This document shows positions 3,553-61,033 of a stretch of 64,000 bases of DNA, one piece after another. The position numbers and the translations under genes were made by a program. Every line of letters starts with the position of its first letter. Position 1 is the first letter of the stretch. The DNA is taken from the NCBI RefSeq assembly GCF_028368995.1, contig NZ_JAQNDL010000003.1:64001-128000 (forward strand), read 5' to 3'. The notes beneath the pieces are model-generated. The model was not told where the DNA came from. It saw nothing but the letters and a program-made list of their open reading frames with translations, and did no database searches. Source of the stretch: Nannocystis bainbridge. GTDB lineage: Bacteria; Myxococcota_A; Polyangia; Nannocystales; Nannocystaceae.

Positions 3553-5251
3553 TCCTGTGTATACATCCGAGCGACGAAGGTGCACATTTCCCCCTGGATG
3601 CGCGAACAGCACGCGCTGGAGCGATCTGCTCCCGTCCCGCGGATTCGCCTCGGCGCGGATACGTATCGCCGGGTGAATGTCCGTAGTCGTGGAGCCAAAT
3701 AAAAGGCGAAGTCCCGTGCAGCGGGTGTGAATAGATATACACCGCGCCACACCGCCGACTACCAGGAATTCTACTGAGCGGACAGATGTCCGCAAGTCAC
3801 CTCGCAAATGTCATTTGCCAGACTCACGAACTCGCGACGCAGTCCGGCGAACAAGCACTCTCGCGTCGGCGCCTCGGCGCGGCGAGGTCCGCGGAGATCT
3901 CTCTTGTGAATGACGTCGTGGAACAATTGCGGCTCCTGCAGTGAAACGCCCGCCGCGCGCCTCGCCCGGTCCGCAGCCGTTCGCCGGCCCTCGGCAGGAG
4001 CGGTCGGCATCGCGCATCCTTGGCTGTGCATCGGTGTGTCTCCACATTTCACGAGCGCTCGCGGACGCGGACGCTCTTCAGGCGAACGGTCGTCGACTGC
4101 TGCTTGCCGGGCCCCTGACCGGGCCGCCCGGCGCGACCTGACGGTGAACGAACGTCCCGGAGATCGCCGGGCGAAATCATGGCACCCCGCATCGAGGTGC
4201 CTGCAATCGATCGCGGCCGCGTGTTCGTCGCGGCTGGCGACGCGCGCGCGACGGGCCCGCGCCCCTGCGCGTGACCCGATCGCCAGCGCCCCGCGAATCT
4301 CCGCCAGGGCCCGCCGCCGAGCTCCGCTCGCGCCCGCGATCTCGCAGCCTCCCGCGAGCCGCACCGCCGACGGGCGCTCGCCGACCCGCCTCGCCGCAGG
4401 CTGGCACCTCGCGCCGAAAGCATGCCCCCGCGCGCCGCCGCGAGCGGACGCTGCAGCGCCCGGACCGTCGAGCCGCGGGTGCGAACACGGCGTGGCTCGA
4501 CCCTGCCGCGGAAGGCGCCCCGAATCACGCGCACGCCCCCGAGCCTTCGCCCGCGCGCCGCCCCGAGCCATTGATACGACACCGCGAGCGCGATTGTCAG
4601 CAGGACCGAATCGCGGCTCGCCCGCGTCCCTTCGACGATTCGACGCGATCGCCCGCTCGCGTCGAACATCGCCCAGGGTCGAGCCCTCGGAGACCCGCCC
4701 GAAAACAGTCGGCATCTTCCGACGGTACCCGCCGCGCCCGCGAATCGCAACCGGCGCAGCACCGGCGATCGCTCGTTCGCACCACCACGAGTTGCGGCCT
4801 GCAGACAGCACCTGTCGATTCACCCGCCATCCCGCTCGCGTGCGCCGCCCCGCGGCCGATTGGCCGCATGTCTCAAAGGACATCCCGATCGCCGCCCAGG
4901 GCGGCCGGCGGCATGCTTCGCGCGAATCACGGCGGGGTCATCCGCCCGGCCGCCTCGTCGGCGCCTGCTCGTCGCGCATCACCCTGAGGGTCGGCAACGC
5001 CTGCCTCGACGGCGCGCAGCGGCTGCGTCTCCGGCGAGGCACGCAAGTGCCGGCACGCCGCTCGCCCGCGCATCGCTGCGACCAGACCTCACCAGCGCCG
5101 GCTCCGCGAACCCCACCGTTTGCCCCGAGCACCGCTCGGCGAACCCCGGGTGACAGGAGGCCCGCGTCACACCTCTTCGCAATCACCGGTGCATCCGGCC
5201 CCCATCCTTGCGCTGCTCACATTGCCTGCCGCTCGCGCGCACCGGCCGGGA

Positions 5252-21128: not shown

Positions 21129-23276
<2,148 letters not shown>

Positions 23277-23295
23277 AGCCCGAGGACTCAAGACC

Positions 23296-24021
23296 ATGCC
23301 TACCACTACACACGAACCTTCGGGTCTCATCGCCATCCGCGCCCTCGTCGACCTGGAGCGCGAGCGCCAGGACCGCGAGCAGGCCGCCGCAGCCGCCCGC
23401 GAGGCCGCCGAGGCCGCTGCCCGCGAGGTCGCCGAGGCCCGCGCCCGCGCCGAAGCCGAGGCCCTGGCCCTGGCCGCCGCCGAGGCCCGGCGCCGCGACG
23501 AGCGCCGGCTGCACGAGGAGCGACTGCGCGCCGCCGAGGTCGAGGGCCGGCTGCGGGCCGGCCAGGCGGCTCACCTGGCGCAGGTGCAGGCCGAGCTCGA
23601 CGCCCGGACCGGCCCCGCGCGCCCGGCCAGCGCCGTCGGCCTGTGGACCGCCGGCGCCCTCGGCCTCGTCGGCCTCGGCCTCGCGGTGCTGCTGAAGACC
23701 GCCACCGCCGCGCCCGCGCCCGCGCTCGCGCCGGTGGCCGCCGCCGAGGACACCTCGCTCCGCGACGCCCGCCAGGCGATCGCCGAGCTCCGGGCCGGCA
23801 TCGCCGACATCGAGCGCAGCAACGAGGCCGACCGCCAGGCCCTCGCCAACGCCACCGCCCGCGCCGCGGCCTCCGTCGTCGCCCCCGCGGCCGCACCCGC
23901 GCCGACGCGCCCGCGCCCGAGCGCCCGCCCGACCGCCAGGCCGGGCGACAAGCCCCCAGTCGCCAAGCCCGGCGGGCTCAAGATCTGCGACACCAACGAC
24001 CCGCTGGCCGAGGACTGCTGA
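23296..24021 (+). CDS. Hypothetical coiled-coil membrane protein with C-terminal CDxNDPL motif
   Basis: Ala/Glu/Arg coiled coil, TM LWTAGALGLVGLGLAVLL, Pro-rich linker, ends KICDTNDPLAEDC. Confidence 0.75.
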   Translation: MPTTTHEPSGLIAIRALVDLERERQDREQAAAAAREAAEAAAREVAEARARAEAEALALAAAEARRRDERRLHEERLRAAEVEGRLRAGQAAHLAQVQAELDARTGPARPASAVGLWTAGALGLVGLGLAVLLKTATAAPAPALAPVAAAEDTSLRDARQAIAELRAGIADIERSNEADRQALANATARAAASVVAPAAAPAPTRPRPSARPTARPGDKPPVAKPGGLKICDTNDPLAEDC

Positions 24022-27443: not shown

Positions 27444-28289
27444 ATGCAGAACAAGACACACCACCACCGCGAGCACCGCCACGGACACAAGGGCCGGCGA
27501 GATCTGGGCGAGACGCGCGGGCTGCTGGCGCGGGCCGTCGATCGCGTGCGCGCGTGGTTGGGCGACGAGGACGCCTCCGGCCGGCTGAAGCTCGACGCCC
27601 GGCGCAGTCGTCGTGACGCGCGGATCCAGGCCCGGGCCGAGCGGCGGGAGCACATGCGCCAGGAGATCGAGGAGCGGCGGCGCAGCGCCAAGCGGCATCA
27701 TCGCGAGCGCATGGCCGGCGCGCCCCCCCTGAGCTTCATCCCGTCGCCGCAGACCTGGCCGTGGCAGTTCATGGGACGCGGCGCCCCGTGGCCGCCGAAC
27801 CCCGAGTCGTACTACCAACAATCGCTGCCGCCCGGCGTGCGCGGCCGGCCGCTGCAGCGTCGCGGCCGCTTCACCGGCCGCGGCCCTCGCGGCTATGTCC
27901 GCCCGGACGCGCGGATCGTCGAGGACATCAACGAGGCTCTGACGTACAGCCCGCACATCGACGCCAGTGACATCGTCGTCCGCGTCGACAGCGGCGACGT
28001 CGTCCTCTCGGGCAGCGTCGACGATCGCTACATCAAGCGCCTGGTCGAGGAGCTGATCGAAGACGTCGCGGGTGTGCGCGACGTGCAGAACGACCTGCAC
28101 GTCGAGACCCGCGATCTGCAGGGCGCCGGCGGTATGCACCGCAGCTCGGCCCGCCGCGACGACAGGGGCGCGCAGCGGCGCGACATGACCGTGGGCCAGG
28201 ACTTCGAGGACCTCGAGACCAGCAACCTCAACACCGGCCAGGAGAGCTGCGCCCGCAAGCACCGCGGCGGCAGCTTCTCCGGCACCTGA
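27444..28289 (+). CDS. BON domain protein
   Basis: GRGPRGYVRPDARIVEDINEAL...IDASDIVVRVDSGDVVLSGSV...GVRDVQNDL; GGAGG RBS. Confidence 0.88.
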   Translation: MQNKTHHHREHRHGHKGRRDLGETRGLLARAVDRVRAWLGDEDASGRLKLDARRSRRDARIQARAERREHMRQEIEERRRSAKRHHRERMAGAPPLSFIPSPQTWPWQFMGRGAPWPPNPESYYQQSLPPGVRGRPLQRRGRFTGRGPRGYVRPDARIVEDINEALTYSPHIDASDIVVRVDSGDVVLSGSVDDRYIKRLVEELIEDVAGVRDVQNDLHVETRDLQGAGGMHRSSARRDDRGAQRRDMTVGQDFEDLETSNLNTGQESCARKHRGGSFSGT

Positions 28290-28311
28290 GCAGCGCGAGC
28301 GACGGCCCGCG

Positions 28312-29107
28312 CGGCGACGTGGTACTTGTCGAAGGCGATCTTCGCGTCGCCATCGGGGATGGCCTCGCGGACAGCTTGAATGTAGGGCTCGTGCATGTCC
28401 ATGACGACCACCGAGACCGCAGCCCTCTCTGGGCGCGAAAAGCCGCTCAGGAAGCCCTTGAGGGCCCCTTTGCCGCGTCCGTCGGCGACGTGGATGACCC
28501 GCTTGCTGGCGGACTTCGGGTCATGCACGATCGTGACGTACTCGTGGCGCCGCTGGAAGGAGGTCTCGTCGACGGCGAGCATCGCCGGCAGCGCGACCTC
28601 GCGGCGCTCGAGTCCACATTGTACTGCACGCTCCTGGACGCCGGCGACCTGATCCCACGAGAGGCCGAGGCGCTCCGCGACCACTGCGATCGGCGCCTCG
28701 CGGAGCCAGTCGATCACCAGCGCCTCGAACAGCGCGGTGAGCCGGGCGCTACCGTCCGCCCAAGAGACGCGCATCGTCAGCGTACCGTGCTTCGGGCACG
28801 ACGTCCGCGGTACGCCGGCTTCGATGATCGTCCGATACTGACACGTATCGAGGTGCCGCCATCGACGAGTCCGTGTATCGTGACGGGGAACAGCCTGGTC
28901 ACACTCCGGGCACCTCGTCGGCACATCGGAGTCGTGCTCGACCTCGATGACGATCTGCCCCTGCCCGAGCTGCAGCTTCACCGCAGCAACACGCCAGGGA
29001 GCCTCGATACCGAGAATGCGGGCATAGAGTTCGGTCTCTGCCATTCGCGCACGGTATCACGGCGCGATTTCGCGCGCAACCCACGCCACCCTCAACCCTG
29101 AAGAGCC
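28312..29107 (-). mobile_element. ISL3-family IS, 3'-truncated (left end plus N-terminal ~245 aa of transposase, start 29044)
   Basis: CPEC...RRWRHLDTCQYRTIIEAGVPRTSCPKHG, AVDETSFQRRHEY, VMDM, AFDKYHV then homology stops; end GGCTCTTC at 29107 next to AT-rich TAATTTCT. Confidence 0.9.
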
Positions 29108-34141: not shown

Positions 34142-37100
34142 TCAGGCGGCAGCGGGGCCGCGCTTCTTGGCGCCGATGAGCTGCATGGCGAAGGCGATGC
34201 CGCTCTGCAGGGTGCCGTGCGTGGCGATGCCGCGGAGGTCGATGCCGAGGTCGACGAACAGGGAGGCCGTATCCGGGCTGACGCCGGTCAGCACCGTGCG
34301 CGCGCCGAGCAGGCGGAGCGCCGAGCCGGCCTGGATCAGCGTGATCGCGCCGCCGCTGTCGATCCCCTTCATGCCGGTGACGTCGAAGATGACGACGCGC
34401 ATGCGCCCGGCCTCCGCGCCCTGCAGGGCCGTCTGCAGCAGGTGATCGCAGCGGGTCGCGTCGAGCGTGCCGATCAGCGGCATGACGACGATCGCGTCGG
34501 TGATCGGGATCATCGGCGTCGAGAGCTCGGTGAGCATCGCCTGCTGCATGCGGATCATCTCCTCTTGCAGCGCCGCGCGGGCCTCCTCCGCCCGCTCTCG
34601 CTCGATCAGCTCCGCGGACAGGCGCTCGTTCGCGGCCTGCAGGGCGGTGGTGCGTTGCTCGACGTCGGACTCGAGGCGCTCGTTCGCGCGGGCGAGCGCG
34701 TTGCCGGCCTCGACGACGTGGCGGTACAGCAGGGCGTTCTCGACGGCGGTCACCGCCTGGGCGCACAGCACCTGCAGCAGCTCGACGCGGTTGCGGCTGA
34801 AGGCGTCGCGGATCAGGTGGTTCTCGACGACCAGGATGCCGCTCATGCGCCGGCGGTGCGCCAGCGCGAGGCACAGCACCGACTTGACCTGCCTCGCCAC
34901 GAGCGCGGGGTCGGCGGCGAATCGGGGGTCGCGCGCGACGTCGCCGAGCACGACCGCCTCGTGGGTGCGGGCGACGTATTGGACCAGGCTCGCCGGGACG
35001 TCGGGGCGGGCGGCGAGCGGCGTGCTGCTGACGAACTCGACCACCTCGGTGTCGATCGACGCTGCCGCCGCCAGCTCGAGCGTACCGTCGCGGTCGAGCA
35101 GCAGATATACGCGCGTGCCGCCCGCGTTCTGCATCACGATCCGCATCAGCCGATCGAGCAGCTTGTCGAGCTCGATCTCGCCGACGAGCGCCTGCCCGAG
35201 CCGCACGACGGTCGCCAGATCGAGGGCCGCGGCCGCGCCGAGGCCGACGGCGCCGCCATCGTCCGGCGTGGTCGTGCGCACCGGACCGGTGACCGCGGGC
35301 GCCGTCGTCGGCTGGGGAAAGTCGCGGGCGATCAGGGCCGCCTTCGCAGGAGCGCCCCAGCGCACGAACCCGTCGTACGCCGCGCGCATGTACACCGGGG
35401 CGATGAACGACCGTTGGCGGTCGCGGTAGAACTCGCCGCACAGCGCGCTCGCCAGCGCCTCGTACTGCACGAACCCGTTGCGCCGCGCCGACGCGATCGC
35501 CTGGTCGTAGAGCTCCTCGGCCTCGAGCGCTCGACCCGTGACGCGCGCCTCCTCGGCCCGCACGAGCAGGTACTTGTGCTCGAAGTTCTCGGGGCAATTG
35601 TCGGCCCAGCGCGCCAGCTTGTCGATGTCGTCGCGCAGCACTGCGCGGTCGGCCAGCGCCTGCGCGGCGTCGACGTCGCCGACGCGCGCGCACAGGGCCA
35701 GCGCCTCGTAGACGTGGAAGGTCGCCTCGATCGGCATTGCCATGACTGCGCCGAGCACCTCGCGCGCCGAAGCGGCGGCGGCGAGCGCCTCCTCGTGGCG
35801 TCCGTAGGTGTAGAGGAGCATCAGGCGGATGATGTGATAGAAGGCGATGCCGCAGCCGAAGCTCGCGGCGGTCACCTGCGCCAGGCACTCCTGGGCGTCG
35901 AAGTCGTCGCTGTCGAGCAGCGTGCCGGGGCGGACCCGGCCGGCGAGGCTGTCGAGGAATTGCTGCTGCAGGCGGATGGTCTGATACACCGCCTCGTTCT
36001 TGCTCTCGCGCGCGAACGCGGCGAACCGCTCCGACGCGCGGCGCGCCTCGCTCAGCGGGCTCCCCACCTCGATGTGCTGCCATACCGTCTCGAACGCGAG
36101 GAACGAGGCGTACACGAGGTCACCGGCGGAGATGCAGGCGTGGAAGGCCTGCTCGAGGATCGGGAAGTCGGTGCGCAGCGGGCTGCGCCAGAAGTTGATG
36201 TGGTCGCCGTGGAGGTGCAGCAGCGTGCCGCGCAGCTTGGCGTCGCCGAGCCGCTCGTTGAGCTGGATCGACATCTCCGAGAACGCGTAGCCGTTGGCGA
36301 CGTCGCCGAACACGCTGACGAGCATGAAGCCGTACACGCTGTAGGCGAAGCACGAGTCCTCAGCGTTGCCGTGGCGCAGCGAGAGGTTGACGGCCGTGAG
36401 CCCGAAGTACGGGAACACCTTCGGCCGGCCGATGTACGCGCACGGCATGATGCCGACCATCAATCCGAGGACGGCCCGGTGCGCCGGATCGGTCATCAGC
36501 GGCGCGTCGAGCAGCGTGGGCACCGGGCGCCCGGCGAGGTTGCCGGCGACCGCCGCGGCCTCGGCGGCCATCGCCGCCTGCAGCGCGGCGTCGTCGGCCG
36601 GGAGCTCGACGCCGAACAGCGCCAGCCCGCGCACGCCGAGCTCGACGCCGGCGTCGTAGCGGCCCGCGACCTGATAGAGGCGCATCTGTAGGATGTAGAC
36701 ATTCGCGTGGTCGACGCGATCGCGGGCGCGGGTGTGAATCCGGTCGAACAGCTCCTCCGCGCGCTCGAACGCGCCGGCGAGGTACTCACATTCGGCCAGC
36801 TCGCAGTGCAGCGCGTAGACGTGGGCGTAGTCGTCGTCCCACGCGGCCTCGGGCAGCAGCGCGACGCCGGCGCGCAGGTACTGGGCCGCCGCCGCGTAGG
36901 CGGTCGATTTCTTGGCGTGGCGGCCGACCGCGAGGTTCAGCGCCGACACCCGTCGCCGCTCGTCGGCGTCCAGCATCAGCTCGATGCCGAGGTCGAGGTG
37001 ATCGACGACGTCGAACAGCTCGTCAGGGCGCGGCTCGCCGCCGAGTCGCGCCAGCAGCAGCCGCCCGATCCGCAGGTGGGTCTCGGCGCGCTGCTCGGCG

Positions 37101-39202
37101 GCGACGAGCGCGTACGCGGCCTGCTGCACGCGATCGTGCGAGAAGTGGTACGACAGCTCGAGCGGCGCGCCGCGTTCGCCCGCGCGCGGCAGCGCCGGCG
37201 CGTGATGGACGAAGCGGTAGTCGTTGCTCTCGGGCACCACCAGGCCCTCTTCGAGCGCCTCCCACAGCGCGGCGGCGGTGGCCTCGGGCGACTCGGCGCA
37301 GATCGTCGCCAGCGCGGCGAGCGTGAACTTGTGACCGATGCACGCGGCCAGCCGCAGCACCCGCTGGGTCGCCTCGCTGCAGCGGCGCAGCCGCTGGGCC
37401 ATGAAGTCGAGGACGTTCGCGGTGACCTCGCGCGCCTCGATCGCGGCGATGTCCCAGGTGAACCCGCCCTCGCCGGCGCTCGCGCGCAGGAGCCCGTCCT
37501 GGTAGAGGCCGCGGAGGAACAGGCCGACGAAGAACGGGTTGCCGTCGGTCTTGCGGGCCACGACGCGCGCGAGCGGACCGGCCTGCTCGGGGGTGCAGCC
37601 GAGCACGTCCGCGAGCAGCTCGCCGAGGTGATGCGGGGCGAGCGGCCCGACCCGTAGATCGTGCACGGCGCGGCCCTTGCCGCGCAGCTCCTCGGCGGCG
37701 AGCGTCAGCGGGTGCGCCGGCCCGACCTCGTTGTCGCGGTAGGCCCCGACCACGAGCAGCCGCCGCGGCGACGGCGAGGCCAGGAACAGCTGCAGCAGCT
37801 TGAGCGACGCGAGGTCGGCCCATTGCAGGTCGTCGAGGAACAGCACGAGCGGCGCGTCGCCGCCGGCGAACGCCTGCACGAATCCGTCGAGCAGCCGGTT
37901 GAAGCGGTTCAGCCCCTCCGTCGGCCCGAGCTCCGGGGCCGCCGGCTGGAGGCCGATCATGTGCGTCAGCTCGGGGATCAGATCGACGAGCACCTGCGCG
38001 TTGCCGTCGGCCACCCGCAAGATCTCCTCGCGCACTCGGACCAGCCGCTCGCCGCCCTCGCCGAGCGTCTGTCGCAGCAGATCGCGGAACGCGTGGACGA
38101 AGGGCGCGTAGGGGGCGTTGCGCGCCAGTTGGTCGAACTTGCCGGCGATGAAGGTCCCGCCGTCGCGCGCGATCGTCTTGTGGAGCTCCTGGACCAGCGC
38201 GCTCTTGCCGATGCCGGAGTAACCGGCGACGAGCAGCAGCTCGGTCCCGCCGTCGCGCACGCGGTCGAACGCCTGCAGCAGCGTCGCCAGCTCTTCGTCG
38301 CGCCCGTAGAGCCGCTGCGGCAGTCGCAGCGCCCCGGCCGCCTCGTGGCGCGCGAGCGGGAAGGGCGAGACGGTGCCGGTGGCGTCGAGCTGGCGCAGGC
38401 ACTCCCGCAGATCGGCCGCGATCCCGTTGGCGCTCTGGTAGCGATCTTCGGGCGCCTTGGCGAGCAGCCGCATCACCAGCGCCGACACGGCCTCGGGGAT
38501 CTCGGCGACCTGGCGCGGGGAGGCGGGCACGCGCGCGATGTGGCTGTGGACCAGCTCGAGCGGGTCGTCGCCGTGGAACGGCGGGGCGCCGGTGAGCAGG
38601 TGGTAGAGCGTCGCGCCGAGCGAATAGAAGTCGGTACGGAGGTCGAGCGCCCGGTTCATGCGCCCGGTCTGCTCGGGCGACATATAGGTGAGGGAGCCCT
38701 CGAGGCCGTCGAGGCTCGTCGGTCGCTGCGCCTCGACCGAGAGGCGGGTCGCCAGGCCGAAGCCGACCAGGTGGACCAGCAGCGGCTCGGCGCGGACGAT
38801 GATGTTGGCCGGCTTGATGTGCTTGTGGATGACGCCGCTCGCGTGGACGCCGGCGAGGATTTCGCTGACCGCCGCGGCGATCGCCAGCGCCTCGCGCAGC
38901 TGGAGGCGACCGCGGCGGAGCACGACGTCGAGCGGCTCGCCCGGCGGCGACTCGAGCACGAGCGCGAGGTCGTCGCCGTGGGCCTCGAGCGCGTACGCCT
39001 TGACCACGCCGGGCACCGTGATGCCGCGAAGGATCGCATACTCGTGCTGCAGTCGGGCGACGTCTCTCGCCGTCGGCGGCGAGCGACGCGGCAGGTGCAG
39101 CGTCACCGGGGTGCCGTCTGCGGTGCGAAACCCGCGACACAGCACGGTCTCGGGCTCCTCATTCATCGACTCGACAATTGTGTATTGACCGAATGTGGAC
39201 AT
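34142..39202 (-). CDS. Multidomain sensor: degenerate Ser/Thr kinase - AAA ATPase - TPR-like - GAF - STAS
   Basis: YMSPEQTGRMN kinase lobe; Walker A GYSGIGKS, Walker B LFLDDLQW; GAF; RsbR-like ELSTPMIPITDAIVVMPLIGTLD. Confidence 0.92.
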   Translation of the reverse strand: MSTFGQYTIVESMNEEPETVLCRGFRTADGTPVTLHLPRRSPPTARDVARLQHEYAILRGITVPGVVKAYALEAHGDDLALVLESPPGEPLDVVLRRGRLQLREALAIAAAVSEILAGVHASGVIHKHIKPANIIVRAEPLLVHLVGFGLATRLSVEAQRPTSLDGLEGSLTYMSPEQTGRMNRALDLRTDFYSLGATLYHLLTGAPPFHGDDPLELVHSHIARVPASPRQVAEIPEAVSALVMRLLAKAPEDRYQSANGIAADLRECLRQLDATGTVSPFPLARHEAAGALRLPQRLYGRDEELATLLQAFDRVRDGGTELLLVAGYSGIGKSALVQELHKTIARDGGTFIAGKFDQLARNAPYAPFVHAFRDLLRQTLGEGGERLVRVREEILRVADGNAQVLVDLIPELTHMIGLQPAAPELGPTEGLNRFNRLLDGFVQAFAGGDAPLVLFLDDLQWADLASLKLLQLFLASPSPRRLLVVGAYRDNEVGPAHPLTLAAEELRGKGRAVHDLRVGPLAPHHLGELLADVLGCTPEQAGPLARVVARKTDGNPFFVGLFLRGLYQDGLLRASAGEGGFTWDIAAIEAREVTANVLDFMAQRLRRCSEATQRVLRLAACIGHKFTLAALATICAESPEATAAALWEALEEGLVVPESNDYRFVHHAPALPRAGERGAPLELSYHFSHDRVQQAAYALVAAEQRAETHLRIGRLLLARLGGEPRPDELFDVVDHLDLGIELMLDADERRRVSALNLAVGRHAKKSTAYAAAAQYLRAGVALLPEAAWDDDYAHVYALHCELAECEYLAGAFERAEELFDRIHTRARDRVDHANVYILQMRLYQVAGRYDAGVELGVRGLALFGVELPADDAALQAAMAAEAAAVAGNLAGRPVPTLLDAPLMTDPAHRAVLGLMVGIMPCAYIGRPKVFPYFGLTAVNLSLRHGNAEDSCFAYSVYGFMLVSVFGDVANGYAFSEMSIQLNERLGDAKLRGTLLHLHGDHINFWRSPLRTDFPILEQAFHACISAGDLVYASFLAFETVWQHIEVGSPLSEARRASERFAAFARESKNEAVYQTIRLQQQFLDSLAGRVRPGTLLDSDDFDAQECLAQVTAASFGCGIAFYHIIRLMLLYTYGRHEEALAAAASAREVLGAVMAMPIEATFHVYEALALCARVGDVDAAQALADRAVLRDDIDKLARWADNCPENFEHKYLLVRAEEARVTGRALEAEELYDQAIASARRNGFVQYEALASALCGEFYRDRQRSFIAPVYMRAAYDGFVRWGAPAKAALIARDFPQPTTAPAVTGPVRTTTPDDGGAVGLGAAAALDLATVVRLGQALVGEIELDKLLDRLMRIVMQNAGGTRVYLLLDRDGTLELAAAASIDTEVVEFVSSTPLAARPDVPASLVQYVARTHEAVVLGDVARDPRFAADPALVARQVKSVLCLALAHRRRMSGILVVENHLIRDAFSRNRVELLQVLCAQAVTAVENALLYRHVVEAGNALARANERLESDVEQRTTALQAANERLSAELIERERAEEARAALQEEMIRMQQAMLTELSTPMIPITDAIVVMPLIGTLDATRCDHLLQTALQGAEAGRMRVVIFDVTGMKGIDSGGAITLIQAGSALRLLGARTVLTGVSPDTASLFVDLGIDLRGIATHGTLQSGIAFAMQLIGAKKRGPAAA

Positions 39203-39508
39203 GCCCCGCCCGCTCTTTGTGGGCTGCGACCGAGATCGCGCCAGCAGCGAAGAACTCAATGTATTGACAATGCGACCCTACTCGGGATCCTCAGGCCGAG
39301 TCAAGCCTCCGCGCTCGGGACTTCTCCGATGTAGAGATCGGCTCCGCGCGCGACCCGCCCCCGCTGGCGAGCGACGGGGGTGTAGGTGATTTGTCACCGG
39401 CGAGTGTACACCCCGTGTCGCTACAAACATCGGCGGAGGTGAACACATCCGCGTTTGCACGCGAGCCCGGACCAGCAATCCCGATAAATCGCCGCGTGGC
39501 TGCACGAC

Positions 39509-54473: not shown

Positions 54474-55028
54474 TCAGCTCGGCGCCGACTCGCGCGCCGC
54501 GCGAAGGATCCGGTCGGCGAGCGCGGGGTCGTCGACGAGTCGACCGAGCACCACGGCGCCGACCATCGTCGCCGTGAGGCGCAGCGCCGCGTCACTTGGG
54601 GCCCGCGCCGACCGCCGCGGGTGGAGCTTCTTGTCGACCAATCGCAGCAGGCCGCGGGCCACCTCGGCGAAGGCCTTGCGAACGGAGGAAGGCTTGCGGC
54701 CGCCCTCGGCGCCCAGTGCCGCCAGCACGCAGCCTTGCTCGGGGTGCTCAAGATGTCCGGGCGACAAGTAGCGCTCGAGCGTCTGCCCGAGGCTGTTGCG
54801 GTCCGCGAACGTGTCCTCGGCAGTGCGGGCGGCGGCCGCGAGCACGGCCTCGGCGACCAGCTCGTCGCGGTTCTCAAAGTGCGCATAAAAGCCGCCGTGG
54901 GTGAGCCCGGCATTCTTCATGAGCGCAGGGATGCTGACACCCGACAGGCCGTCGCGGCGTAGCGCCTCCGAGGCAGCGCCGACGATCCGCTCGCGTATGG
55001 CCTCCTTGTGGCCCTCGGAGTATCGCAT
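54474..55028 (-). CDS. TetR family transcriptional regulator
   Basis: RERIVGAASEALRRDG...AGLTHGGFYAHF; GCVLAAL. Confidence 0.92.
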   Translation of the reverse strand: MRYSEGHKEAIRERIVGAASEALRRDGLSGVSIPALMKNAGLTHGGFYAHFENRDELVAEAVLAAAARTAEDTFADRNSLGQTLERYLSPGHLEHPEQGCVLAALGAEGGRKPSSVRKAFAEVARGLLRLVDKKLHPRRSARAPSDAALRLTATMVGAVVLGRLVDDPALADRILRAARESAPS

Positions 55029-55240
55029 GTTGGTCATCATACCATGACCGGCCCCGCTGACAAGCGCGAAGGTGCGGCACGTTCTTGCGCGGCACCCGCA
55101 TCCGCTGAGGTCGGCGCAGCCCGGTGTGCGGTGAGCGGGCAGTGATCGGCTGGCCGAGCGTGACGAGCGACAGGCCGGATCAACGGGATGCGCGACGACA
55201 GACAACCTGGTCCGAAGACCAGGCCCGGCAGGCACCCGAA

Positions 55241-55513
55241 GTGCAATTCGAACGCGGCGAGCTCGAGGCGGCGCGCTCGTTGTACGAAGAGTCGCGGTCC
55301 ATCATCGACGAGTTGGTGCGGTCGTTCCCGCAGAAGCTCACCGAGCTCGCGCGGCTCCGCCGGGCGCAGGGCGACCGCACGCTGGCCCTCGACGCAGCGA
55401 ACCGGGCGCGATCGATCCTCGGGGCCCTGCTCGCCAGTCCTCCCTCGCCTCTGCCGGAGTGGGAGGACTGCGCGCGACAGGTGAACGCACTCATCACCGA
55501 GCTCAATGCCTAG
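55241..55513 (+). pseudogene. C-terminal TPR fragment
   Basis: RGELEAARSLYEESRSI...QGDRTLAL; no clear N-terminus. Confidence 0.45.
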
Positions 55514-55584
55514 CCGATCGAGTCGTGCGACGCGCGCGCGGCCGCGTGCGCGGCGACCCCGCGCATCACCGCGGTCAGCACGGC

Positions 55585-55803
55585 GAGCGCTGGCGCGGGG
55601 AGCTGATCGCGGACGGTGAGGCGCTGCTGTGGGCGGCGCTGGGTCCTCGCCCGGGCCTGCGGGCGCTGCGGGCGACGATCCACGCGGTGCACGCAGATCG
55701 CCGGCGCTCGGGGGTGACCGACTGGGCGGCGATCCTGACGCTGTACGGCACGCTGCTGCTGCTGCGCGACGACCCGGTGATCCGGGTCAATCGGGCGCGG
55801 GCG
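55585..55803 (+). pseudogene. Fragment of ECF sigma factor C-terminal extension (DUF6596-type)
   Basis: WRGELIADG...ATIHAVH...TDWAAILTLYGTL...PVIRVNRA. Confidence 0.6.
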
Positions 55804-55894
55804 AATTCGGGCCTGCACGGTGACCAGCTCCAGGCCGACATCAAGCTCCTGCTCGATCGCACGCGCCGGTGCCTGTGGGGCGGCCTTGTCGTCG

Positions 55895-56286
55895 CCGAGC
55901 GCTCGGGCGTCGTCGCGGAGCGTGTCATGGTCATTCAGGTCTTCGTAGCCGCACAGAAGGCCCAGCACACGCTGCGCCAGCAGCTCCTCGACGGTGTGCT
56001 CGATGCGGCTCGGGTCGCGGTGGTCCCGGAAGCAGGACGCGAACCTTCGAAACACACCTGAGCTCTTGGTCAGCTCGCGCAGCAGCAGCAAACCGCCGTC
56101 CGAGCTGACCCGTCCGGCGTCGAACGCAGCCTCGACCCGGCGGCGTCCGGCAGGTTGAAAATCGAACTCGGCGCGGATACACCTTGTCGTGTTCCGGCCG
56201 TACCCCTGGGTGGCCAGCAATCGTTTCACACCCGCTCAAACTCGGGAAGTACGGCCGGAATTCCTTACCGTGGTGAGAAATCCGGG
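55895..56286 (-). mobile_element. IS1380-family IS, left end plus 5' transposase fragment
   Basis: VEAAFDAGRVSSDGGLLLL...DHRDPSRIEH...QRVLGLLCGYEDLNDHDTLRDD; end CCCGGATTTCTCACC preceded by CTAG. Confidence 0.88.
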
Positions 56287-58686
56287 CTAGCGCCGGGGCC
56301 CGAGGTTCGTGCGGACCAGCAATTGCGAGAAACTCTCGAGGAACTCCTGCTTCGAGATGTTGTTGTCGCGGCTGATGTCGCTCGAGCGCAGGAACTCGTG
56401 GATCTCCTCGTCGGCGTAGCCCATCGCCCGGAACTTCGCCTCGACCTCGGCGCGGTCGAGCTGGCCGTCATTGTTGGCGTCGATCTCCTCGAACACCTGG
56501 GCCATCGAGTCGCGGAAAAGCGCCCGCGAGATGCCGCGGCGGAACTCGCGTTCGAGCATGTCGAGGAAGGTGTCGTCGCCGAAGTCGGTCAGCCACGGGT
56601 TCATCACCGTCGAGCGCAGGACCGTGACGGCGTGCCCCGGGCCCTCGACGCCGAGGCGGCGCTTGTAGCTGTCCATGAACTGCGCGCCGTAGTGCGCGTC
56701 CTCGAAGTCGGTGGTGGTCACCAGCAGCGGGTGGCCGGACGGGTCCTCGCCCGGGCGCAGGCTCAGGACCTCGTAGACGGCCTTGTTCAGGCGGTTCGCC
56801 TGGGCCAGGCTCGTATTCATGCGGCCGTCCGGGTGCTTGAAGTTGAAGGCGTAGGTGAGGATGTTGAGGTCGGGCCCGATCTCGGCGAACAGCGCCATCG
56901 CCTCCTCGTCGGCGAGCAGCTCCTCGGGGTCGCGGCCGTCGATCCGCCAGCGGATGAACTCGGTCTGCGCGGCGACGTCGCCGCCGGCGATCTCGGCCGG
57001 CAGGCGCGGCACGGGGACGACGACGAAGTTGTCCTCGGGGCGGGCCATGCAGAGCAGGCGGGCATAGACCCGCCGGCAGTTGAAAAGCGCCTTGCGGTGG
57101 ATGCTGCCGTAGCCGCTGCGGCTCGGGCGGATCACCTTGTGCGCCAAGAACACCGCGGCGACCGCCGCCCCGGGCTTCGAGCCCTCGACGCCGTAGATGC
57201 CGACCGAAGGCTCGTCTTGCGCGTGCAGGATGTAGGGCGCTTTGAAGGTGACCAGGTCGCGCATCGCCGCGTTGCGGTAGCAGAGGGCCCCGGCCGGGTA
57301 AGGGATGTAACCCGACTTGTGAGGGTCGACGGTGACGGAGTCGGCCTGCTGCAGCACGGCGTACTGGGTCTCGGTGTAGCGGCTGAAGCCGACCTCGGCG
57401 CGCGGCGAGGCGGGCGCGGGCTGCTTGCCGGCCGGGGCGTCGTCGTCGCGGAGGATGCTGACGTGATAGCCGCCCCACGCGGCGTCGGCGTGCACGGTGA
57501 ACTCGAGGCCCCTCTCGCGCAGTTGGTCGCGCAGCGCGAGGATCTCGCGCAGCGGATCGACGGCGCTCTCCTCGGTGCTGCCGATCACGCCGACGACCGT
57601 GTACACCGGCCGGCGCTCCGCCAGGCAGCTCAGCAAGATCCGCTCGAGATCGGGGATGCTCATGCGCGCGTTCTCGTCGAGCGGGACGTCGAGCACGTTG
57701 GCGGCGCCGATCCCGAGGATCGCGGCCGCCTTGGGGAACGAGTAGTGCTTGGTGGCCGGGACCAGGATCACCGGCGGGCTGCGCAGCTCGCCGACGTAGC
57801 GGCTGAAGAACGCGTGCATGCCCAGGCTCTGCGGCGAGACCTTCGCCAGCGCCGCAGTGATGACGTCGGGCGAGATCCCGAACTCCGCGGTGATGCGCGC
57901 CGGCAGGGCCAGGATGTCGTCGCCCTGCAGGTTGCACAGCGACCACGCGTCGAGCTCGCGCAGCAGCGCCGAAGCGCCGCCCGGCCCCCGCACGCGCAGC
58001 TCGCTCGCGGCGGCCAGCGACGGGTCCTCTCGCAGCGCCGCCTGCATGGCGACCGGGTAGAGCTTGAGGTTGCGCGCCGACCAGATCGCCTCGATGTTGG
58101 CGACGGTGCCGCCGCTGGTGATGTGGCCCCACGGGCGCACCGCGCCGGCCTGGCACGCGGCCTTGTCCGGCAGCGGGTAGCCGATCATGCGGCACAGATC
58201 GTCGCCGACCAGCAGCTCGAGGATCGTCGTCGCCGTCGAGCCCTCGAAGGCGACGTTGTTGGGGTTGTAGAGCATCGCCGCGAAGTAACCGAGGACCGCC
58301 GGCATCGCGGTGTCCCAGTTCATGTGCCCCTGGTAGCGGGTGCTGAAGAACGGCATCGATTTCTTCAAGAAGCCGAGCAGCGAGCGGTAGCTGTCGGTGA
58401 GGCTGCCCATCGCCTGCACGTATTCGGGCTGGCGCTTGACCGCCTCGGTGACGAGGGTCGGATCGCCGGGGTGGAAGTTGCGGCGCCAGAACGCCTGATC
58501 GCGGATCGCCTCGACGATCAGCCGCTCGAACTCCTCCGCGTTCTCCGCCTTGGAGCCCAGGAACCACGCCTCGGGCGACGAGGTACCCGGGCCTTCGAGG
58601 TAGGGGATCTCCACGTGTTGAAGGAATTGATCGACGGCGCCCGCAGAGACCTGGGGTCCCCGCTTTCGATTGGGTCGTTGGGTCAT
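56287..58686 (-). CDS. Group II PLP-dependent decarboxylase (tyrosine decarboxylase-like) with C-terminal EF-hand pair
   Basis: YQGHM, YNPNNVAFE, GHITSGGTVAN, HADAAWGGY, DPHKSGYIPYPAG, EGSKPGA; EF loops DANNDGQLDRAE and DISRDNNISKQE. Confidence 0.9.
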   Translation of the reverse strand: MTQRPNRKRGPQVSAGAVDQFLQHVEIPYLEGPGTSSPEAWFLGSKAENAEEFERLIVEAIRDQAFWRRNFHPGDPTLVTEAVKRQPEYVQAMGSLTDSYRSLLGFLKKSMPFFSTRYQGHMNWDTAMPAVLGYFAAMLYNPNNVAFEGSTATTILELLVGDDLCRMIGYPLPDKAACQAGAVRPWGHITSGGTVANIEAIWSARNLKLYPVAMQAALREDPSLAAASELRVRGPGGASALLRELDAWSLCNLQGDDILALPARITAEFGISPDVITAALAKVSPQSLGMHAFFSRYVGELRSPPVILVPATKHYSFPKAAAILGIGAANVLDVPLDENARMSIPDLERILLSCLAERRPVYTVVGVIGSTEESAVDPLREILALRDQLRERGLEFTVHADAAWGGYHVSILRDDDAPAGKQPAPASPRAEVGFSRYTETQYAVLQQADSVTVDPHKSGYIPYPAGALCYRNAAMRDLVTFKAPYILHAQDEPSVGIYGVEGSKPGAAVAAVFLAHKVIRPSRSGYGSIHRKALFNCRRVYARLLCMARPEDNFVVVPVPRLPAEIAGGDVAAQTEFIRWRIDGRDPEELLADEEAMALFAEIGPDLNILTYAFNFKHPDGRMNTSLAQANRLNKAVYEVLSLRPGEDPSGHPLLVTTTDFEDAHYGAQFMDSYKRRLGVEGPGHAVTVLRSTVMNPWLTDFGDDTFLDMLEREFRRGISRALFRDSMAQVFEEIDANNDGQLDRAEVEAKFRAMGYADEEIHEFLRSSDISRDNNISKQEFLESFSQLLVRTNLGPRR

Positions 58687-59018
58687 TGGAATCGCTCTCC
58701 TGGCAGGTCCGAAAATGAGGTGGGCGGAGCTTCGCACAATCGCCGCGGGGCCGGGACGGCGCGTCGCTGCGGGCGGTGATGCGCGCGCGCGAGCCCGGGG
58801 CCGGAGGCGCCCAATGGCCGGAGAGTCACCAGCGAGGCCCTGCGGTCCTCGCCGACGCGAATGCGCAGTTTCGCAGCGCTCGCCGTCGGGTCGGCCCGGC
58901 CCGCGATCGACGCGGATCTCAGCCGCGGCACGGCCGGGGACGCGCCCTTCGAGCGCACCTTTTTAAAAAGGCGGGGCAAGCTCGCGAAATCTTCATGGAC
59001 AGCCCCTCGCGCGCCGGC

Positions 59019-59849
59019 TCACGGCGCCGTCGCGTGGTGCATGAAATCGACGTAGGCCGTCAGCGCCTCCGCTTGCGCATAGCGGCCGTCGAGCGCCAGG
59101 CGGTCGCCGAGGGCCAGCAAGGCCCCCCACAGCATGTAGGCCCATAGCTCGCTGTCGCCGCGGCGCAGCTCCCCGGCGGCGATCGCCCGGCGCAGGCTCG
59201 GCTCCGCGTTCATCACCATGCGGTGCAGGGCCTCGCGCGCGCGCGCGGCCACCTCCGCGTCGCGCCCCTGCGCGGCCGCTCCGAGCAGGTTCGTCAGCGT
59301 GCGATAGCCGGCGAACCGCGACAGCACCGCCTGCGCCCGCATGCGCCCCTCGTCGATCAGCGGCGTCTGTCTCGCTGCGAGCTGCGCCCGCGTCGTCGCC
59401 GGCACCAGCGACAGGCGCAGGCGATCGAGGCACTCGACGAACAGCTCGCGCTTGCTGGCGAAATGTTGATACACCGTCGCCTTGCCGACCCCCGCCGCGC
59501 GCGCGATCGCCTGCACGTCGGCGCCCTCGAACCCGCGCTCGAGGAACAACCGGGCCGCCGCGTCGAGGATCGCCGCGCGACGATCCTCCGCGCCCTCGCG
59601 GCGCCGTCGCGGCCGCCTGGCCGGCGTCCGCGGACGCTGGCGAGTGGCCAGGCGCTCGCGGATCTCCGCCAGCCCGAGCCCCTGGGCCCGCAGCCCCTTG
59701 ATCTCGCGCAGCCGCGCCACGTGCTCGTCGCCGAAGTGGTGGAGCCGCGGACCCAGAGTTTCGGGCCGCGGCAGCAGACCGAGGTCGAGGTAGTGGTGGA
59801 TGGTCGAGCGATGCGTGCCGCTGACCCGTGAAAGCTCCGCGATCTTCAT
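59019..59849 (-). CDS. MerR-HTH / TetR fusion regulator
   Basis: MKIAELSRVSG...IHHYLDLGLLPRP (MerR) then ILDAAARLFLERGF...IARAAGVGKATVYQHF (TetR). Confidence 0.88.
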   Translation of the reverse strand: MKIAELSRVSGTHRSTIHHYLDLGLLPRPETLGPRLHHFGDEHVARLREIKGLRAQGLGLAEIRERLATRQRPRTPARRPRRRREGAEDRRAAILDAAARLFLERGFEGADVQAIARAAGVGKATVYQHFASKRELFVECLDRLRLSLVPATTRAQLAARQTPLIDEGRMRAQAVLSRFAGYRTLTNLLGAAAQGRDAEVAARAREALHRMVMNAEPSLRRAIAAGELRRGDSELWAYMLWGALLALGDRLALDGRYAQAEALTAYVDFMHHATAP

Positions 59850-59980
59850 CCTCGACGCCCCTCCGCCTCGGCATGGTTTGTATTGCACAACCCTGATTTT
59901 TGTATAATGCAATTATCGCCGACACGGCGCTTCCGTGCAGCCCTGTTGTTCTCCTGACCCGACCGTGATAGCTTCGTGGC

Positions 59981-61033
59981 ATGGAGTTCTCTGCGCCGCC
60001 GCCGTGGTCATTCGCCCTCGCCCTCGCCCTCGTCGCTTGCGGGTCCACCGGCGGAGCCACGACCGACGACGCGACCGTCACCGGGGACAGCTCGTCGACC
60101 GGCGACGTCACCTCGACCTCGACCGGCACCTCCGCCCCCACCACCGGGTCCGACACCACCGGTCCTGCCGACACCACCACCACGTCGAGCACCACCGACG
60201 CGACCACCACCACGTCGAGCACCACCGAGCCCGCGACCACCACGAATGACACCACCACCGGCGATGACACCGGCGTCGGCCCGGGCTCGCGCTGCGAAGA
60301 GACGGCGACTACCATCACCTGCCCCAAGATCACCGTCGAGCTCGGCCCGTGGCAGCGCGACGTGCATTATCAGGTCCCGCTGGGTCAGCCGCCGGCGGGT
60401 GGTTGGCCGGTCGTGCTGATGTTCCAGGGCTCGTTCTTCAGCGCCGAGATCACCTGGATCGCCACCGACGACCTGCCCTTCGGCGCCTATTATCAGACCC
60501 ACGTCGTCAAGCGTTTGCTCGATCACGGCTACGCCGTCATCACCCCCGAGGCCAAGCTCGACGGCGGCACCTTCTGGGACACCAACATCCCGCCGTTTTC
60601 GCTCAACTGGGAGTCGTCGGAGGATCACCAGCTCATGCTGCTGATCTTCGCCGGCATCGCCGAGGGCGCCTTTGGCCCGCTCGACGCCGGGCGCCTGTTC
60701 GCCACCGGCATCTCGAGCGGCGGCTACATGACGAGCCGCATGGCCGTCTCCTACCCCGGCAAGTTCCGCGCCCTGGCGATCGCCGCCGGCTCGTACGCCA
60801 CCTGCTCGGGGCCGCTGTGCAGCGTGCCTGACCTCGACGACGGCCACCCGCCGACCCTGTTCCTCCACGGCGAGATCGATCTGACCGTGCCGCTCTCCAC
60901 TGCGGAGGAATACTACGACGAGCTGCTGGCCTCCGGCGTCGACGCGCGACTCGTCACCGAGCCCGGCGAGGGCCACGCGTGGATCGCCGCCTCGCCCGAA
61001 GAGGTCCAGGCCTGGTTCGACGGCCACCCCTGA
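59981..61033 (+). CDS. Lipoprotein esterase, mcl-PHA depolymerase-like
   Basis: LALVAC lipobox, Thr-rich linker, QVPLGQPPAGGWPVVLMFQGS, GISSGG, FLHG..D, GH. Confidence 0.82.
   Translation: MEFSAPPPWSFALALALVACGSTGGATTDDATVTGDSSSTGDVTSTSTGTSAPTTGSDTTGPADTTTTSSTTDATTTTSSTTEPATTTNDTTTGDDTGVGPGSRCEETATTITCPKITVELGPWQRDVHYQVPLGQPPAGGWPVVLMFQGSFFSAEITWIATDDLPFGAYYQTHVVKRLLDHGYAVITPEAKLDGGTFWDTNIPPFSLNWESSEDHQLMLLIFAGIAEGAFGPLDAGRLFATGISSGGYMTSRMAVSYPGKFRALAIAAGSYATCSGPLCSVPDLDDGHPPTLFLHGEIDLTVPLSTAEEYYDELLASGVDARLVTEPGEGHAWIAASPEEVQAWFDGHP

Follow-up and report, generated by a model that had tools for sequence, protein, structure and literature searches.

A pyridoxal-phosphate decarboxylase of Nannocystis bainbridge with a conserved, built-in EF-hand pair as a candidate for calcium control in bacteria

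Our study concerns a 64,000-nucleotide stretch of the Nannocystis bainbridge genome (contig NZ_JAQNDL010000003.1, positions 64,001 to 128,000; hereafter the window) and, within it, a gene that encodes a 799-residue decarboxylase dependent on pyridoxal 5'-phosphate (PLP), whose chain continues into a C-terminal pair of EF-hands. The EF-hand pair is genuine and far beyond what chance would produce, with its two loops recurring in 98 of 121 aligned sequences. Judging from its sequence relationships, the enzyme belongs to the "non-canonical" branch of the aromatic amino acid decarboxylases (AAADs), the branch that contains PcncAAAD of the fungus Psilocybe cubensis. With moderate confidence, we read it as a cytoplasmic aromatic-amino-acid decarboxylase in which both EF loops would bind Ca2+ and amine synthesis would be under calcium control. 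Its substrates are most likely aromatic (Phe, Tyr, Trp or close relatives), to be converted into arylalkylamines and CO2, and the enzyme is most likely a homodimer; we infer the binding of Ca2+, as well as the existence and direction of a Ca2+ effect on catalysis. The activation of a non-canonical AAAD by calcium through a C-terminal appendage is already known for one fungal enzyme, as described in its 2026 structural study (PMC13062060). What is new is a bacterial branch that carries a built-in EF-hand pair at the position of the appendage, and that is widespread, conserved and, it seems, not yet studied.

The gene lies on the minus strand, and all coordinates are given as window positions. 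Its open reading frame (ORF) starts with an ATG at 58686, ends with a TGA at 56287-56289 and is uninterrupted over 799 residues. An alternative, longer start (GTG) exists at 58737; the ATG is favoured by a preceding GGAG and by the N-terminus that it yields (MT.RPN...), which agrees with those of the closest homologues, the nearest being an 800-residue protein of Nannocystis exedens with 94% identity. The GC content at the three codon positions of the frame 56287..58737 is 0.68/0.48/0.92, as is typical of a genuine gene where the overall GC content is about 70% (0.65-0.78 in 2-kb windows). Three overlapping ORFs of at least 600 residues occupy 56200-58750, and coding composition is found only in this minus-strand frame; the two long ORFs in other frames were rejected as artefacts of the high GC content. 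Three Pfam domains exceed their cut-offs within the single ORF, namely Pyridoxal_deC (PF00282; 56.8 bits, cut-off 27), tyr_de_CO2_C (37.5 bits, cut-off 27.2) and EF-hand_7 (PF13499; 35.5 bits, cut-off 30, E 1.3e-8). The original prediction, an intact PLP decarboxylase running in frame into an EF-hand pair, is borne out by these matches, and the motifs on which it relied, DPHK, DANNDGQLDRAE and DISRDNNISKQE, are all found in frame at residues 454-457, 736-747 and 770-781. Inspection of the N-terminus by eye revealed no hydrophobic stretch resembling a signal peptide.

The best match of the protein among PDB sequences (phmmer) is 6EBN, the 1013-residue PcncAAAD, with an E-value of 1.1e-157. The alignment is a single stretch that pairs residues 39-716 of the bacterial protein with residues 24-702 of the fungal one, and it therefore spans the whole N-terminal catalytic domain (24-702 of 717). 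The next matches are the tyrosine decarboxylases of Lactobacillus and Enterococcus, at 1.2e-86 and 5.8e-84, and the others stand at 1e-18 or worse. The protein qualifies as a group II PLP decarboxylase by its Pfam score together with the PLP lysine, the histidine, the aspartate and the catalytic-loop tyrosine. The putative catalytic residues K457, H188, H314, D401 and Y485 are all present, and K457, H314, D401 and Y485 are near-invariant; from general knowledge of the fold, we take H314 to be the histidine that stacks on PLP and D401 to be the aspartate that contacts the pyridine nitrogen.

Residue conservation was counted in an alignment of 188 rows, comprising 40 rows of the clade that bears EF-hands (the EF clade), 39 long forms and 109 other relatives. 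Position 457 is a lysine in 40/40, 37/39 and 108/109 of these rows, respectively, and in the EF clade the catalytic and pocket residues Y485, V145 and A146 are kept in 38/40, 39/40 and 40/40. At position 485, a valine is found in 45 of the 109 EF-less relatives that are not long forms and in 7 of the 39 long forms, which reflects either a shift of the alignment at this point or a large part of the family with a different proton donor or reaction outcome.

PcncAAAD, first described in 2018, is a homodimer; in each chain, residues 1-717 make up the N-terminal, catalytic domain and residues 718-1013 an appendage that is not homologous and forms a double beta-barrel (PMC13062060). Its substrates are Phe, Tyr, Trp and kynurenine; the reaction runs markedly faster in a Ca2+ buffer than in a Na+ one, and the enzyme shows no activity without the appendage. 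Its activating site A is made up of Asp971 from the appendage, Glu638 and Ser632 from a lid loop (631-647) and the backbone of Gln629; the lid loop fixes, above the active site, a rim helix (131-135) whose Val131 and Ala132 line the aromatic pocket, and Lys443 and Tyr471 are the PLP lysine and the catalytic tyrosine (PMC13062060). Through a further site, B, the effect of calcium is partly one of thermal and structural stabilisation (PMC13062060).

The lid and the rim are recognizable in the bacterial enzyme. The rim-helix residues V145/A146 align with Val131/Ala132, and the lid-loop residues Ser642 and Glu647/Asp648 align with the site A ligands Ser632 and Glu637/Glu638. Within the EF clade, the lid is kept almost without exception (S642 40/40, G646 40/40, E/D at 647 36/40, D/E at 648 40/40). 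The small tyr_de_CO2_C domain, which contains the lid loop, was modelled with a predicted local distance difference test (pLDDT) of about 80-90 and superposes on 6EBN. The features shared with PcncAAAD are then the homology of the catalytic domain and a lid loop and rim helix with those site A ligands that the N-terminal domain supplies; the C-terminal double beta-barrel, with its Asp971 and site B, is absent, and an EF-hand tail stands where the fungal enzyme has its beta-barrel.

In both EF loops, oxygen ligands occupy positions 1, 3, 5 and 12 and a hydrophobic residue occupies position 8; position 6 of the second loop is Asn, not Gly. Searched alone against PDB sequences, the tail matched radial spoke protein 7 (1.7e-12), the calmodulin-like domain of a calcium-dependent protein kinase (CDPK; 3khe, 7.3e-9) and CaBP1 (1.1e-7), followed by calmodulin and troponin C at about 1e-5 to 1e-6. 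An AlphaFold2 model of the last 240 residues (560-799), built from a 25-row alignment, reached a mean pLDDT of 81.0 and a predicted template modelling score of 0.63, and folds the tail into two successive helix-loop-helix units with short paired strands. In Foldseek searches with this model, its first part was placed on 6EBN (E 2.9e-8, 173 columns) and its tail on the lobes of troponin C and calmodulin, with 1tn4 superposing over 81 columns at a root-mean-square deviation of 2.5 A. The end of the catalytic domain and the entering helix of the first EF-hand are joined in one continuous predicted helix (residues 148-176 of the 240-residue model). By the offset of the alignment (716 to 702), the start of the fungal appendage at 718 corresponds to about residue 730 of the bacterial protein; the EF domain starts at 726, and the EF-less relatives, with 731-747 residues, end near residue 727, inside this same helix. 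The three kinds of C-terminus thus meet at one junction.

The conservation of the tail was assessed in a homologue search in which 8000 candidates were scored and 4017 proteins had E-values of at most 0.001. Among the best 120 clusters of these, 97 contain both EF loops, which with the N. bainbridge protein makes 98 of 121 rows; the other 23 are EF-less forms of 731-747 residues. In the 98 EF-bearing rows, the first loop shows D at position 1 in 98, N at 3 in 98, D at 5 in 97, G at 6 in 97, L at 8 in 98, D/E at 9 in 96 and E at 12 in 98, and its positions 2, 4, 7, 10 and 11 vary freely. The second loop follows the same pattern, with the counts D1 95, D/N/S3 97, D/S/N5 98, V/L/I8 98, S9 94 and E12 98. 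A simple rule scores the first loop as canonical in 98/98 sequences and the second in 94/98. When the protein was compared with the 85 homologues whose catalytic part is less than 70% identical, identity was 54% in the EF region and 66% in the catalytic part. Near-invariant ligands, in a region whose non-ligand positions vary and whose overall identity is lower than that of the enzyme, indicate selection on calcium coordination and not a decaying remnant; as judged from these substitution patterns, the EF loops are under strong purifying selection.

The fusion is found in two phyla. When a single genome from each GTDB species was scanned with a pattern, 537 of the 562 hits proved to be relatives, and 80 loci were kept. 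The EF tail is present in 40 of these 80, of which 20 belong to Myxococcota, 19 to Cyanobacteriota and one to an unassigned metagenome-assembled genome (MAG). The myxobacterial loci come from Sorangium (9), Polyangium (5), Nannocystis (4), one Hyalangium MAG and one Kofleriaceae MAG. A midpoint-rooted FastTree phylogeny was built from the 188 rows over 730 columns, with the N. bainbridge protein, 76 locus proteins and 111 representatives, all of the latter two sets having at least 690 residues; shorter rows, five incomplete or uncalled loci (L019, L021, L039, L063 and L065) and the EF columns, which fell below the 50% fill filter, were omitted. All EF-bearing rows form a single clade of 40 with a Shimodaira-Hasegawa-like support of 97, three of them (L010, L051 and L057) with degenerate loops. 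This clade is nested among EF-less forms from cyanobacteria and other bacteria, and the 20 myxobacterial rows (support 99) are in turn nested inside the cyanobacterial EF rows. The topology of this midpoint-rooted FastTree phylogeny agrees with a fusion that arose once and later passed from Cyanobacteria to Myxococcota, and a single EF clade that spans both phyla indicates that the fusion has been kept through deep divergence.

The rows with at least 880 residues are placed, in 36 of 38 cases, in the other half of the tree; they include the fungal-type forms of about 1000 residues, and their appendages gave no Pfam match. One 1012-residue representative (P0189) has an N-terminal beta/gamma-crystallin domain (Pfam Crystall, 59.9 bits), a fold that often binds Ca2+ in microbes; the decarboxylase family could here have acquired yet another, third type of calcium module. 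A word-based search with the EF tail alone for stand-alone relatives returned one candidate only, of 77 residues on a 929-bp contig, which is probably a fragment. The coordinates of the features are compiled in Table 1.

Table 1. Features of the decarboxylase gene and of the surrounding window, in window positions.
Feature	Position	Strand	Basis or remark
Whole gene, 799-aa PLP-dependent decarboxylase with C-terminal EF-hand pair	56287..58686	-	ORF, translation, Pfam, NCBIfam
Catalytic region, residues 39-716	56539..58572	-	phmmer against PDB (6EBN 24-702), Pyridoxal_deC PF00282
Rim helix VAFEGST, residues 145-151, counterpart of PcncAAAD Val131-Pro137	58234..58254	-	alignment to 6EBN
DPHK, residues 454-457, with K457 as PLP-binding lysine (PcncAAAD Lys443)	57316..57327	-	alignment
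Tyr485, counterpart of catalytic-loop Tyr471 of PcncAAAD	57232..57234	-	alignment
Small C-terminal domain of the catalytic part, tyr_de_CO2_C, residues 594-701	56584..56907	-	Pfam, model
Lid loop LSLRPGEDPSGHPLLV, residues 641-656, counterpart of PcncAAAD Phe631-Leu647	56719..56766	-	alignment
Continuous predicted helix, residues 707-735	56482..56568	-	DSSP on both AlphaFold models
EF-hand pair, EF-hand_7, residues 726-786	56329..56511	-	Pfam, PDB sequence matches, fold matches
Putative calcium loop of EF-hand 1, DANNDGQLDRAE, residues 736-747	56446..56481	-	translation, conservation
Putative calcium loop of EF-hand 2, DISRDNNISKQE, residues 770-781	56344..56379	-	translation, conservation
Truncated insertion sequence (IS) transposase, 58 nt 3' of the decarboxylase stop	55510-56229	-	positions 2-85 of the 435-position DDE_Tnp_1_4 model
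TetR regulator near the decarboxylase	54474-55235		
Double helix-turn-helix regulator, MerR_1 (residues 22-88) and TetR_N (115-161), just upstream of the decarboxylase	59019-59912	-	
Nonribosomal peptide synthetase (NRPS) module (Condensation, AMP-binding, PP-binding), running off the window start	1-3810	-	

The mechanism that we propose for calcium control is as follows. The last 75 residues would form an EF-hand pair resembling one lobe of calmodulin, carried at the end of the long helix that continues from the catalytic domain. Both loops would bind Ca2+, and this binding would shift the way in which the helix-held pair bears on the catalytic body, so that activity or stability would rise. 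The enzyme would then be a bacterial counterpart of the fungal calcium activation, achieved by a different domain at the same junction. This proposal has real support from PcncAAAD, the nearest characterised homologue, which is calcium-activated and appendage-dependent, with an appendage joined at the same point. It is further supported by the resemblance of the tail to Ca2+-binding EF pairs, both by sequence and by fold, and by the retention of the lid and the rim, through which activation by calcium is transmitted in PcncAAAD.

Several observations weigh against it. The only basis for assigning the substrate is an identity of about 45% to a single fungal enzyme, itself promiscuous. The AlphaFold2 model of the full-length protein, obtained from a 16-row alignment, has a mean pLDDT of 64.9, with residues 1-192 below 50, and is too poor for inferring how the tail docks. 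The EF-less sister group (20 rows) has the same lid loop, with the serine in 20/20 and D648 in 20/20. A docking surface was sought among positions that are invariant in the EF clade and different in these sisters; only five such positions were found (517, 591, 611, 620 and 693), and none of them lies in the lid or the rim, so that the sequences give no hint of a dedicated surface for docking. Since an EF loop coordinates its own Ca2+, it is no simple stand-in for the shared fungal ligand Asp971, and the details of the mechanism must differ. Many of the bacterial EF-hand proteins studied so far are buffers rather than switches, according to a 2026 paper on the CSE protein of Nostoc (PMC13578307).

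A stronger form of the calcium-control reading is that the EF pair truly works as a switch for cytosolic Ca2+, so that a transient would directly start the formation of an arylalkylamine (tryptamine, tyramine or phenethylamine) in bacteria of multicellular habit, and that calcium control of the family has arisen on two occasions, one fungal and one bacterial, through unrelated domains at the same junction above the same active-site lid. We regard this as possible and hold it tentatively. The EF-bearing hosts with multicellular habits are the myxobacteria of the Polyangia and filamentous cyanobacteria. The original prediction went further and considered the amine a signal; this found no support, as no conserved neighbour, receptor or transporter was identified at the EF-bearing loci examined.

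The best-surviving alternative is that the EF pair holds its metal permanently and serves as a structural element that stabilises the fold or the dimer, does not cycle with cellular Ca2+ and has no signalling role. We consider it rather unlikely, and it is kept alive by the poor full-length model, by the lack of a clade-specific surface and by the identical lid of the EF-less sisters, enzymes that are presumably active without an EF pair. The calcium effect on PcncAAAD is itself partly stabilisation, through site B (PMC13062060), most of the bacterial EF-hand proteins studied act as buffers or need Ca2+ in order to fold (PMC13578307), and the EF pair here is modelled on a rigid, continuous helix. 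The points on the other side are not decisive: the loops retain the full canonical ligand set, as in regulatory EF pairs; the best matches of the tail include the sensor-type lobes of CDPK, CaBP1, troponin C and calmodulin; and an addition of purely structural use would hardly have stayed 54% identical in both phyla.

It is improbable, in our view, that the EF pair is instead a Ca2+-dependent module for docking to a protein or membrane, in the manner of the calmodulin lobes that clamp target helices, with catalysis left unchanged. EF pairs commonly bind amphipathic helices, and the missing sign of an intramolecular docking surface would suit such a role. A single EF pair on a rigid helix would, however, be a poor clamp, and no conserved partner gene accompanies the enzyme. 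The latter was examined in 102 neighbouring proteins of 150-900 residues, encoded within two genes of the decarboxylase at the 38 EF-bearing loci (L007, which has no flanks, and L019, where no ORF was called, being omitted), and no neighbour family is conserved across genera. Individual neighbours that could handle amines include a flavin amine oxidase with a cyclic-nucleotide-binding (cNMP) domain (L005, 7143-9179, minus strand), an aldehyde dehydrogenase (L027, 12400-13782, plus strand) and Zn-alcohol dehydrogenases (L006, 12548-14500; L036, 374-1396), and mechanosensitive channels of the MscS type occur at L014, L026 and L023. These amine-handling and channel neighbours are suggestive, and none recurs across genera.

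The surroundings of the gene in the window also differ from those in close relatives. Besides the truncated transposase and the regulators of Table 1, they include a Fer4+SCP2 protein and an MFS transporter, and the MerR_1+TetR_N regulator is not kept beside the decarboxylase in other genomes. In blastn searches, matches of the window to four genomes of Nannocystis (90-93% nucleotide identity) and two of Sorangium (86%) are confined to 56285-58918, that is, the gene with about 230 nt upstream; outside this segment there is no synteny with the Nannocystis and Sorangium loci. With both flanks unrelated, the gene evidently lies at different places even in close relatives. The copies of Sorangium So ce26 and So ce134 cluster with Nannocystis and not with the main Sorangium/Polyangium clade, and this grouping, along with the sharing of the gene alone, suggests a recent transfer of the single decarboxylase gene. 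No Rfam match was found in the whole window and no sigma-70 promoter site in 55400-60100; in the latter region, four terminator-like sites (1.9 expected) were detected, none of them meaningfully placed. Elsewhere in the window lie a second partial transposase (ISL3, DDE 1-97 of 240, at 28028-29056) and two large eukaryote-like Ser/Thr kinases, typical of myxobacteria, at 34142-39277 and 21129-23570 on the minus strand, one of 1711 residues with AAA_16, GAF and STAS domains and the other with TPR repeats.

The same data bear on the idea that the enzyme supplies amine building blocks to a secondary-metabolite pathway, with the EF-hands tuning the supply. Myxobacteria and cyanobacteria are rich in natural products, an NRPS module is present in the window, and a gene similar to MbnB, which modifies ribosomally synthesized and post-translationally modified peptides, and a PhzF-like gene lie near L041 and L008, respectively. 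The NRPS is, however, more than 52 kb away from the decarboxylase, no biosynthetic gene is conserved as a neighbour, and the flanks are wholly different even between Nannocystis species, so that this explanation is very unlikely. Membership in a biosynthetic cluster was rejected for the lack of conserved neighbours. The weakest alternative, a tyrosine decarboxylase of the usual Enterococcus type, serving in catabolism or acid resistance and bearing its EF-hands incidentally, draws on the matches to tyr_de_CO2_C and TIGR03811 and on the scattered, possibly amine-degrading neighbours listed above, and we judge it extremely improbable: TIGR03811, the best NCBIfam model, scores 339.8 bits against an equivalog cut-off of 905.3, which makes the protein a relative and not a member, amino-acid permease or antiporter domains occur in 0 of the 102 neighbouring proteins and nowhere in the window, the hosts are soil myxobacteria and cyanobacteria and not acid-stressed fermenters, and the EF-hands, being conserved, are not incidental. 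The earlier description of the enzyme as tyrosine-decarboxylase-like needs correcting, since the enzyme is not of the Enterococcus type and belongs to the non-canonical AAAD branch; the observation that no amino acid/amine antiporter is adjacent was correct, and the acid-resistance role was rejected on this absence together with the failed equivalog test.

A different genomic setting characterizes the EF-less sisters. These proteins, of 731-750 residues, are encoded in a conserved operon in which a HAD+M28 aminopeptidase-like gene and an M36 (fungalysin-type) metallopeptidase gene precede the decarboxylase, followed by a gene for 320-380 residues that has no Pfam family. The operon was seen at L013 (5436-12870) and also at L028, L038, L046, L059 and L063, in Chamaesiphon, Crenothrix, Pyrinomonadaceae and Synechococcus. 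Single-chain fusions of the decarboxylase with an M28 peptidase (P0210) and with an S10 carboxypeptidase (P0193) also exist. Taken together, these arrangements suggest that the family generally acts on amino acids freed by peptidases, in a pathway that would lead from peptidase to amine. Scytonema sp. NIES-4073 (AP018268.1) has both kinds of gene (loci L024 and L035), an EF-bearing copy with an 802-residue ORF and an EF-less operon copy of 736 residues, and so offers a natural pair for comparing the enzyme with and without EF-hands.

With respect to novelty, a full-text literature search found no paper on a bacterial EF-hand decarboxylase, in agreement with the claim of the original prediction that no characterised bacterial decarboxylase is known to carry its own EF-hands; a mention in the 2018 first description of PcncAAAD, as cited in PMC13062060, is possible. 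In PMC13062060, the words "bacteria" and "homolog" occur in unrelated senses only. Sequence databases already contain many copies of the fusion, named automatically, for example as "EF-hand domain-containing protein". Bacterial calcium signalling remains a matter of debate, largely because few direct molecular targets are known; in Nostoc, only two Ca2+-binding proteins have been analysed, despite many putative EF-hand proteins (PMC13578307). The decarboxylase would offer a ready test case, with amine and CO2 as a read-out, its own EF pair, EF-less sisters as controls and a structurally dissected fungal homologue. If calcium control is confirmed, regulation would have evolved convergently at a single junction within one enzyme family, and metabolic engineering would gain an aromatic decarboxylase that calcium can switch. 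Should the EF pair prove to be a Ca2+ switch, the enzyme would be among the first bacterial enzymes to read Ca2+ through their own EF-hands and would establish a direct link from Ca2+ to a biogenic amine outside eukaryotes. If calcium control fails, the EF pair would be a structural ornament and the protein a routine domain fusion.

Compared with known systems, the enzyme shares the group II PLP fold and the tyr_de_CO2_C domain with the tyrosine decarboxylases of Enterococcus and Lactobacillus (7CWX, 5HSI/5HSJ; TIGR03811), and it differs from them in being about 180 residues longer, in its EF-hand tail and in having no antiporter of the tyrP type. Plant glutamate decarboxylase has a C-terminal calmodulin-binding domain and is controlled by Ca2+/calmodulin. 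The parallel with it that was drawn originally survives as an analogy only, that of a PLP decarboxylase under Ca2+ control through its C-terminus, as proposed here; the calmodulin bound by the plant enzyme is a separate protein, whereas the bacterial enzyme carries the EF pair in its own chain, and assignment to the plant subfamily was rejected (TIGR01788 25.3 bits, cut-off 380.4). The CDPKs, which provide the second-best PDB match of the tail, are likewise enzymes fused at the C-terminus to their own EF-hand domain, but they have a kinase catalytic domain, four EF-hands and an autoinhibitory junction, whereas the bacterial decarboxylase has no identifiable autoinhibitory segment. Stand-alone bacterial EF-hand proteins (CSE of Nostoc, EfhP and CabA-D) also contain canonical EF pairs, filamentous cyanobacteria included; those studied to date are small, free proteins of about 77-150 residues that are seen as buffers or sensors, whereas the pair described here is part of an enzyme by covalent linkage (PMC13578307). 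The closest system remains PcncAAAD. The two enzymes are alike in the whole catalytic domain, in the PLP lysine (K443/K457) and catalytic tyrosine (Y471/Y485), in the Val/Ala of the rim helix, in the serine and acidic pair of the lid loop (S632 and E637/E638, S642 and E647/D648) and in a C-terminal appendage joined at the same point, which binds calcium in the fungus and is predicted to do so here. They differ in the appendage itself, a double beta-barrel of about 296 residues in the fungus and a 75-residue EF-hand pair in the bacterium, and in their hosts, the bacterial protein having no nameable counterpart of the fungal ligand Asp971.

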